Shown here one piece after another: positions 57,294-63,227 of a stretch of 64,000 nucleotides of DNA (within the stretch, counting starts at the first letter, position 1; each line of letters opens with the position of its first letter). The DNA comes from Eubacteriales bacterium (lineage in GTDB: Bacteria > Bacillota > Clostridia > Oscillospirales > CAG-272): assembly GCA_045659905.1 (NCBI GenBank), contig JAZRCT010000012.1, forward strand, positions 47,538 to 111,537, given 5' to 3'. The notes under the pieces were generated by a model. The model was not told the origin of the DNA and did not search any database. It saw only the letters and a program-made list of their open reading frames with translations. A program made the translations under genes and the position numbers.

Positions 57294-58127
57294 ATGTCAG
57301 AACTCAGAACTAATATTTGCGGAGGAAATAACGAGCGCGGTAACGTAACTATTGATACTAACCGTGTTCTTGATTCCTGCCGTGACAGAGATTGCTTTGA
57401 AAATGCAAGGGTATATCTTACAGCTTCGGGCGAGCAGGCTCTGGCGGGCGCAAATAATATAAGAACCGTATCCTCAAGCATTCTCTACGCATACGTAGGT
57501 GTTGACGAGGTTCCGTTTAACTGTGGCTTTTACCGCGTAAGTGTATGCTATTACATTCTCACAGAATTTGAAGCATGCCTTGGTGTAGGAAGAAGCGAGA
57601 CCGTAAAAGGACTTTCGGTAGTGCAAAAGGACGTAATCCTTTATGGCGGAGAGGGGAATTACGTGACCTTTACTTCCTCGGAGAATGGAAGCTTTTGCGC
57701 TCCTTGGTCGATGAACAACAGGAAATCTAACGCGCCCGTTGCTTCCGTTGACACAGTTGAGCCTATTGTGCTTGGAACAAAGATAGTTGATTGCAACTGT
57801 CCTTGCGGTGTAAACGAATATGTAGATTTCCCGGAAGGAATCTGCGATTGCTTAGGCGGTGAGGTTATTGTAAATACCAATTCCTCGAGACTTTATATCT
57901 CGCTTGGTATTTTTTCAATAATCAAAATTACCCGTCCTGCCCAGTTGCTTATTTCGGCGCAGGATAGCTCGGTTCCTGAAAAGGAATGCGTACCTGCTAC
58001 TAATGACGAAGACCCTTGCTCGCTTTTCAGCGCTATGGAATTTCCCACTCAGCGCTTCCGCAACTCATCGCATTCCGCAACCTCCAATGATAGAAACGGA
58101 CGCAGATGCGGCTGTCAGAATAAGTAA
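57294..58127 (+). CDS. Cys-rich hypothetical protein, possibly spore coat/exosporium
   Basis: Many Cys, DSCRDRDC motif; sigma-K-like promoter at 57213-57240. Confidence 0.65.
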   Translation: MSELRTNICGGNNERGNVTIDTNRVLDSCRDRDCFENARVYLTASGEQALAGANNIRTVSSSILYAYVGVDEVPFNCGFYRVSVCYYILTEFEACLGVGRSETVKGLSVVQKDVILYGGEGNYVTFTSSENGSFCAPWSMNNRKSNAPVASVDTVEPIVLGTKIVDCNCPCGVNEYVDFPEGICDCLGGEVIVNTNSSRLYISLGIFSIIKITRPAQLLISAQDSSVPEKECVPATNDEDPCSLFSAMEFPTQRFRNSSHSATSNDRNGRRCGCQNK

Positions 58128-58984: not shown

Positions 58985-59038
58985 TAAATCAAAGGTCCTT
59001 TCATATATTCTAATAAGAACTTAATGGGGGATTTTTAT

Positions 59039-59290
59039 ATGTCTTGTGTAGCAAAGGAGCGTTGCGAGGCGTTAGGGGAATTTGTAATTGAAACGGGAGC
59101 TACCGTAAGATGCGCAGCCTTGCATTTTGGAATAAGCAAAAGCACGGTACATAAGGATTTATCGCATAAGCTTAAGCATTACAACAACGCTATGTATAAG
59201 GAAGTAAAGGAAATTCTTGAAAAAAACAAGGCTGAAAGGCATATTAGAGGCGGCGAAGCCACAAGACGGAAGTATTTGAACAAAAGATAA
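59039..59290 (+). CDS. spoIIID: Stage III sporulation protein D
   Basis: ATVR..A..FGISKSTVHKDL...NKAERHIRGGEATRRKY. Confidence 0.95.
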   Translation: MSCVAKERCEALGEFVIETGATVRCAALHFGISKSTVHKDLSHKLKHYNNAMYKEVKEILEKNKAERHIRGGEATRRKYLNKR

Positions 59291-59632
59291 GCCCAAAAAG
59301 GGCAGGGGACTTCCCTGTTGATTTTCATTAACATTTACTACTATATTATAATATATCATTTTATATTTTTCAAGTATTCTATGAATTTAAGAAGCTAAAT
59401 TTATTGAGTATAATCTGTACAGCCAATAAAGCTTACATTCGGTAAATTTGAATTTTAATAAAGTAAGCTTATACGTGTGATTTGAGTTAATAATATATAA
59501 ACGCCTAAAATTATCACGAAAAAATTTAATTAGCAGTAATATAGGTATTAAGCCGAGCGAAAAATCCGTTATTAAGTAAAACCTAGATAAAATCAAAAAA
59601 AGCCTTATATAAAGGCTTTTATAATCACCTAA

Positions 59633-59672
59633 ATTATACAAAATATCGATTTTGTATAATTGGATTGTGTTT
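59633..59672. repeat. attL: palindromic dif-like site plus 26-bp direct repeat
   Basis: ATTATACAAAA-TATCGA-TTTTGTATAAT (11-6-11); CGATTTTGTATAATTGGATTGTGTTT at 59647-59672 is identical to 62624-62649. Confidence 0.85.
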
Positions 59673-59949
59673 GCTACCCTCTCTAGCTTCCTTTCTTTTT
59701 CGTGTGTAAAGCTTATCATAAACAGATTCCTTTTTCAAGCAAAATCCTTGCTTTGAGCAATTTTCGCAAAGTTCTCGCGTAAAGGAAAAAAGCAATTTTT
59801 GCAATGTCTTTCTAGCTCCGCAATCTCGGTTCAATTGCGGTAATTGTACACAGCTCCCTCCTCTGTTGTCGATTTTATCGCACTTGTCTAGGTTCACTTC
59901 GTTCTCCACCAAGACAAGCGCAATCGCCAACAAATAAAAGGAGTCCGCT

Positions 59950-60246
59950 ATGAACAATTCCCACAATCGTCCCTTCGATTACTTCCTCGCAGAAATCCAA
60001 AATTATGTCGATATTCTTCGCTCAATCTACGAGCTTCGGGAAATCCGCAACGAGCCTTATTCTTTGCAATTCTGCCTCGGGCAAATTGATGCGCTCAATT
60101 ATGTCTTGCGCCTCGGTGCAAGAATTTTCAATCAACGGCTCGGCGTAGAGCTTCCCGATGCTCGTGAAATGAGCTTCAATGAATATCAAGCAATCACCGC
60201 CGAGCAAGATGCGCTCTACAAAAGCATTAAAAAAAGGGGTTGCTAA
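59950..60246 (+). CDS. Orphan 98-aa protein of the element
   Basis: AAGGAG RBS, ATG, hairpin AAAAAAGGGGT/ACCCCTTTTTT at 60230-60259 overlapping the stop. Confidence 0.75.
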   Translation: MNNSHNRPFDYFLAEIQNYVDILRSIYELREIRNEPYSLQFCLGQIDALNYVLRLGARIFNQRLGVELPDAREMSFNEYQAITAEQDALYKSIKKRGC

Positions 60247-60305
60247 TCACCCCTTTTTTGTATTCTCGCACCTTTTGTCGGTTTTGTGAAAAATCGCTTC
60301 TTCCC

Positions 60306-60399
60306 GGCTCGCTCGCTTTGTGAAGCTCAACTCGCAATCGGGGGTTCCGCCCCCCTACGCCGGCTGGGGCGGTCTTGTCCGCCCCCGTCCCCACGCTTT
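60306..60399. repeat. 94-bp GC-rich direct repeat, copy 1
   Basis: 90/94 identical by eye to 61826-61919. Confidence 0.95.
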
Positions 60400-61006
60400 A
60401 TTTCTTCGTGCCTTTCTTTTTGCTTTCGTTTGGCATTTTGTAATTGTTTCCCAGAGCTTCGAGCACCATTCGCACTATAAGCCTTAAATCTCTCCTTGTA
60501 AGCGGTTTTTCGGCGTTTTCCCCTGTATCCCAGTCGGCAAAGCTGTAAATTTCGGTCGTTGCGGAATTGTTGTGTTGCAGCGCTTGCTTGACCTCCTCAA
60601 AGCCTTTTTTGCGGTAAAGCTCTACGGCAAACGCCTTCCGCATAGCGTGAGGTGACACCCCTTCGAGGTCAAGGCCCGCACGCTTCCCGGCTTTCTTGAT
60701 TCTCGCCCATACCGCCTGTCGAGTTAGGTGCTTGTCTTCTGCCTTGTATGACGGAAAAAGATATTTTCCTTGTTTTGCACTTAAAGCTTTTCTCAGGCTT
60801 TGAGATATTGGAGCGACTCCCCTTTTTCCGGTTTTTTCGGCTGTGTAGTGTAGTCCATCTTTTTTCAAATCCTTACGCTGAAGCTTGACGGTATCCCCTA
60901 CCCTTAGCCCAGTCTCAAGGCTTACCCAGAGCGGAAGCCACTGCTCAGCTGTTAATGAGACTTTGAGCTTCGTTATTTCCTCGGGTGACAGATACTTACT
61001 TTTCAT
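60398..61006 (-). CDS. Tyrosine recombinase, catalytic domain only
   Basis: R35 (TGLRVGD), K58, H120-x-x-R123, H145, Y154; 202 aa, no N-terminal core-binding domain. Confidence 0.92.
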   Translation of the reverse strand: MKSKYLSPEEITKLKVSLTAEQWLPLWVSLETGLRVGDTVKLQRKDLKKDGLHYTAEKTGKRGVAPISQSLRKALSAKQGKYLFPSYKAEDKHLTRQAVWARIKKAGKRAGLDLEGVSPHAMRKAFAVELYRKKGFEEVKQALQHNNSATTEIYSFADWDTGENAEKPLTRRDLRLIVRMVLEALGNNYKMPNESKKKGTKK

Positions 61007-61036
61007 TTTTTACTTTCCCAAATTGTAAAAAGTCAC

Positions 61037-61729
61037 TCACTGCGTGACTTTTGATTTTTCTGCCTCTGCGATTTTGCCACGAGCTTCGGCTCTTGCTCTT
61101 GCAAGCTCAAGCTTTCCCAAGCGCTCGGCGCTCTTTTGGTCGGCGTAGCGCCGACTTGTTAGATAGGTGTTGAATAAGCACACATTATTCTTTGCGACGT
61201 CCCACTCGTCACCGTATCCGTTGTCCTCTAGGAAGTCCAGAAGTCCAGAAAACTCCGTTATTTCAGCTTCACGGATTATTGCAAAGGTGCGCTTTATAGC
61301 TTCGTTGACCTCACCCCTTGTCAATTCCACAAACTCGGCCAGACAAAATCCGTTGAGGTGTTCGATAAGACTCTCGTCGTATTGAGCTTTTTCGGGGTTA
61401 TCCTTATGCGAGAAATAATTGTACATTCCTCGGATGCTTTTTAAATCCTTTGGAATAGGCGTGTGCAGCTCGTCTTGGACGAACTTCCTTGCGTTGTTGT
61501 AGGTGGTGGGTCCGTCCCAGCATAGGATAATATGCCAATGAGGTTTTTTTGGCTCCCCTGTCGGGTTGATATCCTTATCGTGATAAGGGGATATTGCACA
61601 GCGCAATCCGCTGATTTTGATAATGTCCCGCCAATCCTCCGGCGCTGAATCCTCGTAGACGATAGCTGTCCAGAACTTGGACTTAACCTCTTTTTCTTTT
61701 TCCTTTTTCTCTTGTTTTTTCGTTTCCAT
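61037..61729 (-). CDS. Rolling-circle replication initiator, Rep_2 / pMV158 RepB family
   Basis: ISPYHDKD, KKPHWHIIL (HUH), YNYFSH...KAQY; ATG at 61729 with AAGGAG RBS. Confidence 0.93.
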   Translation of the reverse strand: METKKQEKKEKEKEVKSKFWTAIVYEDSAPEDWRDIIKISGLRCAISPYHDKDINPTGEPKKPHWHIILCWDGPTTYNNARKFVQDELHTPIPKDLKSIRGMYNYFSHKDNPEKAQYDESLIEHLNGFCLAEFVELTRGEVNEAIKRTFAIIREAEITEFSGLLDFLEDNGYGDEWDVAKNNVCLFNTYLTSRRYADQKSAERLGKLELARARAEARGKIAEAEKSKVTQ

Positions 61730-61766
61730 TTTTGCTCCTTTTTTCACTTGTCATAAGTCACTCTTA

Positions 61767-61794
61767 GGGGGAATGTGTCGTAGTACATTCCCCC
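61767..61794 (-). other. Double-strand origin (nic hairpin), pMV158 family
   Basis: Stem GGGGGAATGT/ACATTCCCCC; minus strand reads TACTACGAC, the pMV158-family nick consensus. Confidence 0.9.
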
Positions 61795-61825
61795 CCGCCC
61801 TTTTCGAGCTACGAAAAAGAAAAAA

Positions 61826-61919
61826 GGCTCGCTCGCTTTGTGAAGCTCAACTCGCAATCGGGGGTTCCGTCCCCCTCCGTCGGCTGGGGCGGTCTTGTCC
61901 GCCCCCGTCCCCCCGCTTT
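61826..61919. repeat. 94-bp GC-rich direct repeat, copy 2
   Basis: Matches 60306-60399 at offset 1520. Confidence 0.95.
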
Positions 61920-61992
61920 TTTCGCTCTCTGTGCCTCGTTCACCGCTTCCCTAGTGTTGTTGCACCTCTGAGCTTTAAATGTAAGACCAAGG

Positions 61993-62180
61993 GGGCGCAG
62001 GCGGTTTTCACCTCACCTCGTGAAGCTCAGCTTGCGACCTGCGTCCGCAACCCTCGCTCTCTCGGAGTATCCCCCCACTGCGCCCGGGGGTGAAGCTCTG
62101 CGGAGCTTTTCGCACTGCGGTGCAAGGTTAGCCCCCTCCCGTCCCCCGTGGGGGAAGCGTGGCTCGAGAGTATCCGAGGC
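61993..62180. other. Branched GC-rich hairpin region, candidate single-strand origin
   Basis: GGCGCAGG/CCTGCGTC, CTCGGA/TCCGAG, TCCCCCCAC/GTGGGGGA, AAGCTC-TGCG-GAGCTT, GCAC-TGCG-GTGC. Confidence 0.5.
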
Positions 62181-62206
62181 TTCCTCTGTCCTTGCTTTGG
62201 CAAAAT

Positions 62207-62398
62207 AAAAAAGCTCCCGAAGATGCAAGAAGTGAAGAGCATCTATGAGAGCTTATGCGATATAACCCAGTCGCGCGCAAGTTCCGCCATCGCAAGCGGT
62301 AGGCATGGGCTTCGGCAGTCCGTACACGAAAGACAGCTCAACGGTAAACTCCTTTCGCATTAACCGAAGGCGACTGGTGACGGTTACTCCGTCGCCAC
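62207..62398 (-). ncRNA. Candidate ~190-nt structured RNA
   Basis: Lies between a consensus promoter (62405-62433) and an intrinsic terminator (62207-62254); multiple nested helices. Confidence 0.6.
62243..62341 (-). CDS. Possible 32-aa Cys-rich peptide
   Basis: GAAAGGAG RBS, 7 nt spacer, TTG start; MSCLSCTDCRSPCLPLAMAELARDWVISHKLS. Confidence 0.35.
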   Translation of the reverse strand: MSCLSCTDCRSPCLPLAMAELARDWVISHKLS

Positions 62399-62404
62399 GA
62401 TTAA

Positions 62405-62433
62405 ATCATAGCACAGCTGCGGAGCTTTGTCAA
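62405..62433 (-). promoter_or_regulatory. sigma-A promoter inside the element
   Basis: TTGACA-17-TATGAT with extended TG. Confidence 0.8.
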
Positions 62434-62623
62434 GGCGAAAATGAAAAATTTCTTCTTTTTGCTTGAAAAAGCTTTGTTCTGCCCTCCGCCCCCACAATCC
62501 AATTAACCGGTGCTACCTTACAAAATTAATTTTGTTGTATGGTTGCTTTGGCAACTATGCTTCTGCCCCTCCCGCTTTAGATGCAATCGTTGCTCACTAC
62601 CGAAAGCAGTCATACAAAAAATG

Positions 62624-62649
62624 CGATTTTGTATAATTGGATTGTGTTT
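62624..62649. repeat. attR 26-bp direct repeat
   Basis: Identical to 59647-59672. Confidence 0.9.
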
Positions 62650-62804
62650 TCTAGCTTGTCTGCCCTATAATACGCCTTATGACAAATTCATTAAATTTGT
62701 TCCTTTAAGCGCTTTCAATTTAATTAAAAATAAATTGGAATATACTTGAAATATCGCCCCATATATGATATAATGTATACAACATATTTATGGAGGATAT
62801 TCAA

Positions 62805-63227
62805 ATGAGAATCAGAGTACTTACTTATACTTCAAAGGGAAAGCTTCTTGCAATCGCAGATGAGGTAACAAAGCTTCTTGATGCAGACAAAGCAACCGAC
62901 GTAATTCCCCCCGCATATCCCTGCGATGGCGAAAGACTTGTCGTAATCGTAGCTTCGGCTAAGAATTCTTATCCCGAAAGCGTACAGAGAACTCTCCGCT
63001 CTTTCAAGAGAAGCGTTACTCACAACGTAGCATTTATCATTGACGGTACAGAAGAGAGCGCAAAATCTATCGTAGAAATGGCAAAGACCAACGATTCGCA
63101 CGTTATAGAGGACAAGATTCTTTATATCAAGGGCGGTCTTCCCTTCAAGTTTATGAAGAAGGTTTCTGCCGAAGAAATGGCAGCCGTTAACGAATGGGTT
63201 AAGGAAGTTAAGGCAGCAATGGTTTAA
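62805..63227 (+). CDS. Flavodoxin-like fold hypothetical protein
   Basis: YTSKGK...IAD, alpha/beta pattern, terminal ..W.K; GGAGG RBS; TTGAAA-17-TATAAT at 62746-62774. Confidence 0.65.
   Translation: MRIRVLTYTSKGKLLAIADEVTKLLDADKATDVIPPAYPCDGERLVVIVASAKNSYPESVQRTLRSFKRSVTHNVAFIIDGTEESAKSIVEMAKTNDSHVIEDKILYIKGGLPFKFMKKVSAEEMAAVNEWVKEVKAAMV

Follow-up and report, generated by a model that had tools for sequence, protein, structure and literature searches.

A rolling-circle mini-plasmid with its own minimal recombinase, probably integrated at the dif site of a Ruminococcus-like Clostridia chromosome

Results

We analyzed a 64,000-nt stretch of the Eubacteriales bacterium assembly GCA_045659905.1 (contig JAZRCT010000012.1, positions 47,538 to 111,537), referred to below as the window. 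Coordinates given without a contig prefix are those of the window, and the source assembly as a whole (1.77 Mb in 58 contigs) is called G000. It is highly probable that positions 59647-62623 are an intact, recently integrated rolling-circle mini-plasmid of ~3 kb, which lies in dif, the chromosome dimer-resolution site, of a Ruminococcus-like clostridial chromosome. Besides a replication initiator (Rep), the element encodes a very small tyrosine recombinase (Int) and one further open reading frame (ORF), here called ORF98.

Two identical 26-bp direct repeats (59647-59672 and 62624-62649), 2977 bp apart and with no further copy in G000, bracket the element. The 28-bp site ATTATACAAAA-TATCGA-TTTTGTATAAT stands whole at the left junction (59633-59660), which is its single full copy in the assembly. 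The right junction is a degenerate copy, in which GTCATACAAAA (9/11 against the host arm) is followed by a 7-nt spacer, AATGCGA, and a perfect arm. Identity between the two junctions starts at CGA within the spacer, as an initial annotation of this DNA had stated, and with one 7-nt indel allowed it extends ~20 nt past the arm. The same annotation had described an 11-6-11 palindrome rebuilt by joining the flanks. Its arms are indeed perfect inverted repeats, but the spacer TATCGA is not palindromic, and the site is already whole at the left junction without any joining. Its count of 8/11 matches between the right arm and each of two quoted XerD-type arms is arithmetically correct. The element has a GC content of 0.45-0.64, against 0.26-0.36 for the intergenic DNA on its flanks. 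Everything that had been placed between the repeats (a Rep gene, its nic hairpin, a tyrosine recombinase, one ORF, and structured DNA) was found there, and the features of the locus are as follows.

59024..59290, plus strand: spoIIID, host gene of the left flank (Pfam SpoIIID, E 4e-32)
59633..59660, no strand: complete dif site at the left junction, made of host arm ATTATACAAAA, hybrid spacer TATCGA, and element-derived arm TTTTGTATAAT
59647..59672, plus strand: left 26-bp direct repeat (repeat search)
59950..60246, plus strand: ORF98, a fast-evolving small protein, with a terminator-like hairpin following at 60223-60266
60306..60402, minus strand: GC-rich two-hairpin unit, copy 1, downstream of int (97-nt repeat)
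60398..61006, minus strand: int, mini-integrase, a 202-aa tyrosine recombinase (Pfam Phage_integrase PF00589)
61037..61747, minus strand: rep, rolling-circle initiator of pMV158 RepB type, 236 aa (Rep_OBD + RepB_C)
61767..61794, minus strand: predicted double-strand origin nic hairpin with a 10-bp stem; its loop is TACTACGAC on the rep strand
61826..61922, minus strand: GC-rich two-hairpin unit, copy 2, immediately upstream of the nic hairpin; a candidate for the single-strand origin or for an accessory site of the origin
61940..62230, minus strand: more GC-rich structured non-coding DNA, with a third partial unit copy at 62012-62035 and GC up to 0.64
62609..62637, no strand: degenerate dif-like site at the right junction, made of element arm GTCATACAAAA, the 7-nt spacer, and host arm TTTTGTATAAT
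62624..62649, plus strand: right 26-bp direct repeat (repeat search)
62790..63227, plus strand: conserved right-flank host ORF, 145 aa; homologous DNA adjoins the empty site in relatives

The right-flank ORF had been called flavodoxin-like in the initial annotation; it matched 0 families in Pfam and NCBIfam.

Judged from genome and metagenome comparisons, the element family is mobile, since six related genomes lack an insert at the site, a further one has a relative of the element there, and free circles occur. Related genomes retain the order spoIIID, site, 140-145-aa ORF, and in six of them (G010, G015, G017, G019, G021, G026) these three stand together uninterrupted. In L031, a metagenome-assembled genome (MAG) labeled 'uncultured Ruminococcus sp.', the synteny is the same, and a relative of the element (Int 66%, Rep 50%), with a nick 9-mer and a 29-bp direct repeat of its own, occupies the same site. 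Terminal overlaps of 127 or 141 nt, the trace that the assembler leaves at a circle, were found on 12 contigs (2.5-5.3 kb) among 80 metagenome loci and point to free circular forms. These circular contigs carry int, and 9 of the 12 have a half-site. Many circular metagenome contigs of 2.4-3.3 kb share the same int and a dif mimic with one perfect and one degenerate arm. Mobility had been claimed in the initial annotation and is borne out by these comparisons; to call the element a plasmid-like parasite of the chromosome dimer-resolution site, as that annotation did, is fair.

That the insert is a dead relic, or that the repeats coincide by chance in AT-rich intergenic DNA, is hardly credible. 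The 11-mer TTTTGTATAAT agrees with the extended -10 promoter consensus and does occur at three other places in G000, but the perfect 26-bp repeat surrounds an intact rep and int in which all catalytic motifs are present, an Int relative with 96% identity exists in another sample, and the six empty sites speak for an insertion.

To define the target site, we searched 401 genomes of the order for a 12-4-12 palindrome with at most 2 mismatches. It was found in 138 genomes, once in 132 and twice in 6, while a reversed-pattern control matched in 1 genome of the 401. Among close relatives, neither 12-nt arm changes, and species differ in the central 4 nt. Across the order, changes in one arm are mirrored in the opposite arm, which is the expectation for a site read by two copies of one protein. 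GC skew was sampled in 20-kb stretches of two closed genomes, and the palindrome lay at the skew switch in 2/2. In the first (G033, one contig of 2,229,578 bp), the site is at 1,145,995-1,146,026; skew was positive in 12/13 sampled stretches before it and negative in 7/7 after it, with values of +0.090 and -0.086 in the stretches adjoining the site. In the second (G063, 3,008,576 bp, site at 1,538,859), skew values ahead of the site were near zero or positive, and 7/7 stretches beyond it were negative.

A full-length Xer-like gene, 42-49% identical to a gene on contig C22 of G000, lies 50-130 bp from the palindrome in many contigs, and Xer orthologues adjoin the palindrome or a family-specific variant of it in at least 17 loci. 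In families without the standard arms, xer adjoins its own perfect 11-6-11 palindrome, such as ACTCAACAAAA-N6-TTTTGTTGAGT. In G000 itself xer and dif are not linked; one Xer-like gene is on C22 and a second on C27. A scan of G000 gave no acceptable canonical dif candidate elsewhere. The best other candidate, C40:42717 (8/11 arm complementarity), was rejected as it lies inside an ORF and off any skew switch. Sequence comparison thus indicates that the palindrome is very probably the host's real dif, because it is single copy, conserved order-wide, placed at the skew switch in both closed genomes sampled, and linked to xer in many relatives. The initial annotation had proposed this assignment, and the proposal stood up on each of these points.

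Several observations concern the same site and its surroundings. In four loci (L004, which is G007:C22 at locus position 2300, L013, L014, and L006), dif lies within a longer inverted repeat; the extended palindrome spans ~52 bp, for example tcgcttccctca ... tgagggaagcga, and other genomes have the extension on one side only. One dif arm (TTTTGTATAAT) was also observed in G000 at C22:4967-4977, ~35 bp before the start codon of the Xer-like gene C22:5013-6029. This lone arm could be a remnant of a lost xer-dif linkage, an autoregulatory half-site, or just an extended -10 box. At ~64-68 kb of C40 in G000, GC skew turns from negative to positive, which marks a candidate replication origin region.

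The replication module resembles that of a known plasmid group. Rep scored 130.5 bits against Rep_OBD (cut-off 24.6; E 5e-38) and 35.2 bits against RepB_C (cut-off 27.3). Its residues 21-178 align to the pMV158 RepB structure 3dkx, with HUH (HxH), SPxHDKD, and YxY retained, so that the metal-binding and HUH histidines and the tyrosine motif are preserved. In the pMV158 family, the conserved nick 9-mer TACTACG/AC is cut in the loop of inverted repeat I (PMC1851628, PMC3387028, in the available parts of both). The minus-strand loop of the hairpin at 61767-61794, upstream of rep, is TACTACGAC, which is this 9-mer, and the 9-mer is also found upstream of rep in seven further loci besides that of L031 (L036-L039, L041, L051, L078). 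By motif and alignment, origin and initiator are those of a standard Gram-positive rolling-circle plasmid, because Rep aligns to RepB and the loop carries the family nick 9-mer. Tandem 5-21-bp direct repeats of the bind locus type were not recognized in a repeat search of the element.

In streptococci, some integrative mobilizable elements have relaxases related to Rep_2. We considered an element of this kind, in which the Rep_OBD protein doubles as a relaxase and transfer relies on a co-resident conjugative system. The element has no other transfer function, as such an arrangement would have it. We consider the idea improbable, because an entire nic hairpin of the pMV158 type stands directly upstream of rep and free circles assemble into contigs of their own, both of which fit replication. 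In addition, MOB-suite typing in PLSDB lists the circular relatives as non-mobilizable, and no origin of transfer or coupling factor was identified.

Much of the remaining element is structured. A 97-nt GC-rich direct repeat, 95% identical between copies (60306-60402 and 61826-61922), lies on either side of the int-rep pair, and the unit recurs in related elements, mostly immediately upstream of the nick site. An alignment of 11 such sequences gave two predicted hairpins, and 3/14 predicted pairs show compensatory changes, which fall in both stems. Folded as single-stranded DNA, a 491-nt non-coding stretch was better than 100/100 shuffles (z = -3.64). Rfam had no match at E <= 1 across 59200-62900. 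A role of the GC-rich hairpin units as single-strand origin, that is in lagging-strand initiation, is plausible from these foldings.

Int aligns over residues 3-162 to positions 94-259 of the 263-position XerA model, which is the catalytic half only. Its best NCBIfam scores are far under the cut-offs (XerA 72.8 against 220, XerD 59.6 against 329.6, XerC 38.2 against 335), and Pfam, NCBIfam, and the structure model agree that it has no N-terminal core-binding domain. R35, K58/K61, H120, R123, H145, and Y154 are invariant across 31 Int sequences. In the predicted structure (mean pLDDT, the per-residue confidence score, 73), the best Foldseek match was XerA 5hxy (E 3e-7), and the model also matches the catalytic domains of XerH 5jk0 and of the lambda and P2 enzymes. 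By these profile and fold matches, Int is a catalytic-domain-only tyrosine recombinase whose nearest relatives are in the Xer clade. Recent descent of Int from a host Xer was rejected, as it is 24% identical to the Xer-like protein on C22 and gave no BLASTP alignment at E <= 10 with the one on C27. A complex prediction of the host Xer-like protein with Int, both with alignments, scored 0.00 and gave no answer either way.

ORF98 has no Pfam or NCBIfam family, and no Pfam family was found for its L031 counterpart or for a 97-aa relative. That relative, at 46% identity, was the one full-length homologue among 1.84 billion representatives in an exhaustive search, whose other two of three matches were short repeated matches to proteins of 420 and 2365 residues. 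A word-sharing homologue search gave none. The ORF at the equivalent position in L031 matched ORF98 weakly (E 0.004).

The Int family is large, with 658 proteins at E <= 0.001 among 1225 candidates scored. Nearly all members are ~200 aa, and most are on contigs of 2.6-3.4 kb. Int relatives occur in 14/401 genomes of the order. At the 13 int loci outside G000, a near-perfect 11-6-11 palindrome (at least 10/11 arm pairs) lies 3' of int in 9, while three have a partial site and one short contig has none. A search of genome contigs with the single Int protein gave only 2 loci, one of which (L032) was rejected as an unrelated 30% match. Circular 'uncultured bacterium' plasmid records with int are also present in PLSDB; they come from a rat caecum metamobilome, and a clear dif-like site was seen in 4/6 int-positive records and 0/2 int-negative ones.

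The initiators paired with int are of more than one kind: Rep_OBD/RepB type in the window and 13 loci, REP_ORF2-G2P type in 16 int loci (including L033, whose Int is 64% identical to that of the window), and Rep_1 type in 5. Every relative examined encodes its own tyrosine recombinase. Across these loci int and attP, the attachment site of the free element, are a constant cassette by sequence, to which three different Rep families are attached.

The initial annotation had offered an inovirus satellite as one candidate, and a satellite of a filamentous (inovirus-like) or other single-stranded DNA phage, packaged by a helper, would agree with several features. TLC and other small rolling-circle elements known to integrate at dif are phage satellites (PMC5357621, in its available part). 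In 16 relatives of the int cassette the Rep is of the ORF2/G2P type, a type tied by Pfam to filamentous-phage gene II proteins, and some relatives are 5.3-5.5 kb with additional ORFs. This origin is nonetheless decidedly improbable for the window element, as its Rep is of the plasmid RepB type with the exact pMV158 nick sequence, and the scanned ORFs (the element's three and those of relatives) showed no morphogenesis domain, whether capsid, Zot-like, or other. No helper prophage was seen, none having been sought, and the circular relatives are listed as plasmids in PLSDB.

Two further observations were made on the family. Some circular relatives (L086, L081, L068, L170) have a different arm, ATTGCACAAAA / TTTTGTGCAAT, which suggests from sequence that they are fitted to hosts with another dif variant; in L086 (21-48, 2816-2843), the arms of the variant palindrome are separated by 8 bases instead of 6. 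In three congeneric genomes, spoIIID is on one contig and the right-flank ORF on another (C22/C40 in G007, C67/C18 in G013, C60/C45 in G004), and the site, where seen, is near a contig end, which fits assembly breaks from variable dif insertions.

The attachment sites follow a common design. In the free circles, attP consists of the perfect arm ATTTTGTATAAT, then usually TG or TGC, and before this arm are 4-5 variable bases and a degenerate arm that mostly retains the inner ACAAAA. It lies 0.2-0.75 kb downstream of the int gene. Where copies are integrated on long contigs, the perfect arm and 2-4 central bases are common to the degenerate junction and the full dif; past these shared bases the junctions diverge, often with one extra spacing base. 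The complete dif is always on the 3' side of int. Spacer homology confined to one side, which the initial annotation had noticed in the window, is real and recurs family-wide in free circles and other integrated copies. In the window and L031, identity continues for 12-15 nt past the arm, as compared with only 2-6 nt in other copies. We infer that this extra identity may go back to a previous insertion of a related element, of which the host-side flank would be a relic.

Tandem arrays and short remnants at dif were observed in L062, L067, L079, and L080. In two of these loci (L062:1196-2972 and L067:1197-2983), a 1.8-kb segment between two dif half-sites has glutamate dehydrogenase (Pfam ELFV_dehydrog) as its only gene; it may be a cargo module caught in a dif array, or an old junction by a host gene.

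A further observation concerns the left flank, where a cysteine-rich protein of ~280 aa with no Pfam family (57294-58127, plus strand) has a homologue at L031:7669-8517. It adjoins a SpoU-type methylase and spoIIID in both the window and L031, and from this neighborhood it may be sporulation-related.

Discussion

The observed anatomy suggests a simple life cycle for the element. Replication would start with the pMV158-type RepB at the nic hairpin, and the GC-rich units may serve lagging-strand initiation. In attP, the element would mimic dif through one perfect arm, a few matching spacer bases beside that arm, and a degenerate second arm often set one base further away. Exchange would then occur within the spacer, beside the perfect arm, and integration would leave dif whole at the spoIIID junction and an impaired hybrid site at the opposite one, so that the host would still be able to resolve dimers. 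Of this scheme, the anatomy, the target, the mobility of the family, and the place where identity breaks off, within the spacer beside the perfect arm, were observed. We infer that integration and excision both require Int, which would act alone or jointly with the host's single Xer bound to the perfect arms; besides Rep, no other gene is kept throughout the family, and Int is tied to attP.

A more specific version of this scheme can be put forward tentatively, and we regard it as possible rather than likely. Int may act as a surrogate Xer partner on the degenerate attP arm, pairing with the host Xer on the perfect arms, and may trigger exchange without the gating imposed by cell division. The portable Int-attP cassette would have made at least three unrelated rolling-circle replicons dif-integrating, and the target would belong to an undescribed Xer/dif system, present order-wide, with a perfectly palindromic dif often beside the recombinase gene. 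If true, a surrogate partner would be a protein solution to a problem that the Vibrio elements discussed below solve by XerC-first exchange or XafT.

The main competitor is an integrative mobile element that exploits Xer (IMEX), a class that by definition has no integrase and uses the host Xer (PMC5357621, PMC12715192, as far as the available text of each goes). The host Xer alone would integrate the element by one strand-exchange pair beside the perfect arm, replication would resolve the junction, and Int would serve, for example, in multimer resolution or excision control. The attP layout is of the VGJ/TLC type, with one conserved arm, same-side spacer homology, and a degenerate arm with altered spacing (PMC5357621, available part); tandem arrays and int-less remnants are present at dif in L062 and L067; and Int has no core-binding domain. 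We still think this unlikely. In elements of 2.4-3.3 kb, int is the sole gene kept across three unrelated Rep families, attP is always just downstream of it, and all catalytic residues are invariant. Since dif-targeting elements are described as integrase-less in the available part of PMC12715192, a bystander integrase would be an odd universal passenger. The initial annotation had named the element a candidate IMEX; in the strict sense the name does not hold, as the element and every relative examined encode a catalytically complete recombinase.

Some results weigh against an Int-dependent mini-plasmid in the host dif. The att layout, with one good arm and one-sided spacer homology, is exactly that of Xer-only IMEXs, so Int might not be the integrase. 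Its missing core-binding domain and its identity of only 24% to the host Xer-like protein weaken any prediction of its DNA specificity. For the target, skew was sampled rather than computed over whole chromosomes, and in two closed genomes only. On the source contig, skew climbs to the site and then flattens, with only 8 kb beyond the site, and past it averages about zero instead of being clearly negative, which is suggestive at most. Three circular contigs (L061, L083, L086) have no standard half-site. Finally, of the checks proposed in the initial annotation, the search for empty alleles succeeded in six relatives, but the search of reads did not give a circle junction: in the one sequencing run found, which contained 5% of the sampled words, read placement at 85% likeness returned only fragments of relatives, and neither the empty-site nor the circle joint of the window copy was seen.

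The mini-plasmid can be compared with several known systems. The IMEXs VGJ-phi and TLC-phi of Vibrio cholerae are likewise small rolling-circle replicons that insert at dif, and, in the part of the literature available, their attP mimics dif through a single conserved arm, with spacer homology confined to the side of that arm. They too regenerate a working dif at one junction and accumulate tandem arrays and remnants. They differ in having no recombinase and using the host XerC/XerD, to which TLC adds the activator XafT, whereas the window family has its own Int. Moreover, the window host apparently has one Xer acting on a perfectly symmetric dif, and the hosts are Gram-positive gut anaerobes. 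By its target and att design the element is one that works like a TLC/VGJ-type IMEX; what sets it outside that class is a recombinase of its own.

LME-1 and the dif/XerL system of Legionella provide another parallel, and the points that follow are taken from the available part of PMC9765430. There, too, a truncated dif mimic points to a dyad-symmetric dif and a single recombinase, and integration gives one intact and one modified site. LME-1 is phage-like and relies on XerL, with no integrase of its own mentioned in that part, while the window element spans 3 kb and encodes a recombinase. A long distance separates xerL from dif in Legionella; in relatives of the window host, xer adjoins dif in many genomes, an arrangement also reported for XerS and XerH.

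With the pMV158 family the element shares Rep_OBD + RepB_C, the HUH and tyrosine motifs, and the nick 9-mer TACTACGAC in a hairpin loop upstream of rep. Unlike that family, it has neither a copG-type repressor nor a Mob gene, and it carries an integration cassette and resides in the chromosome; no tandem 11-bp repeats of the bind-locus kind were recognized. The pSAM2-type integrative plasmids of actinomycetes also combine a rolling-circle Rep with a tyrosine integrase and alternate between free and integrated states, as the window element appears to do. They are ~11 kb and conjugative, however, encode a full-length integrase and an excisionase, and target tRNA genes.

Published relatives include circles from the rat caecum metamobilome (HG796830.1, HG796380.1, and others; PMC3913684), which were deposited without functional annotation. 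They encode the same int family at 33-38% identity, and HG796830.1 also has a RepB-type Rep at 51%. The source reports 83 phage-integrase domains among 616 circles and, in its available part, draws no link to dif or integration. Our literature search found no account of this element family, of IMEX-like elements, or of a palindromic dif in Clostridia, although the supplement of PMC3025954, which holds predicted Firmicutes dif sites, might list the palindrome. A large family of dif-inserted rolling-circle mini-plasmids with their own very small integrase has apparently gone undescribed.

Conclusions

Being the one chromosomal site whose loss a bacterium cannot afford, dif is an ideal landing pad. 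The elements known at dif borrow the host Xer and have no integrase (PMC12715192, in its available part), and the family described here always brings a minimal recombinase. These replicons of 2.4-3.3 kb from gut and rumen-type metagenomes offer a compact system in which to study how a catalytic-domain-only recombinase finds and cuts the site of another enzyme. Insertions at dif would also explain the frequent breaks of MAG contigs at this locus in these species, and the cassette could serve as a small single-copy integration tool for gut anaerobes that are hard to engineer. For the hosts themselves, a poorly cultured clostridial group, the element points out the likely dif/Xer pair, in much the way that LME-1 did in Legionella.

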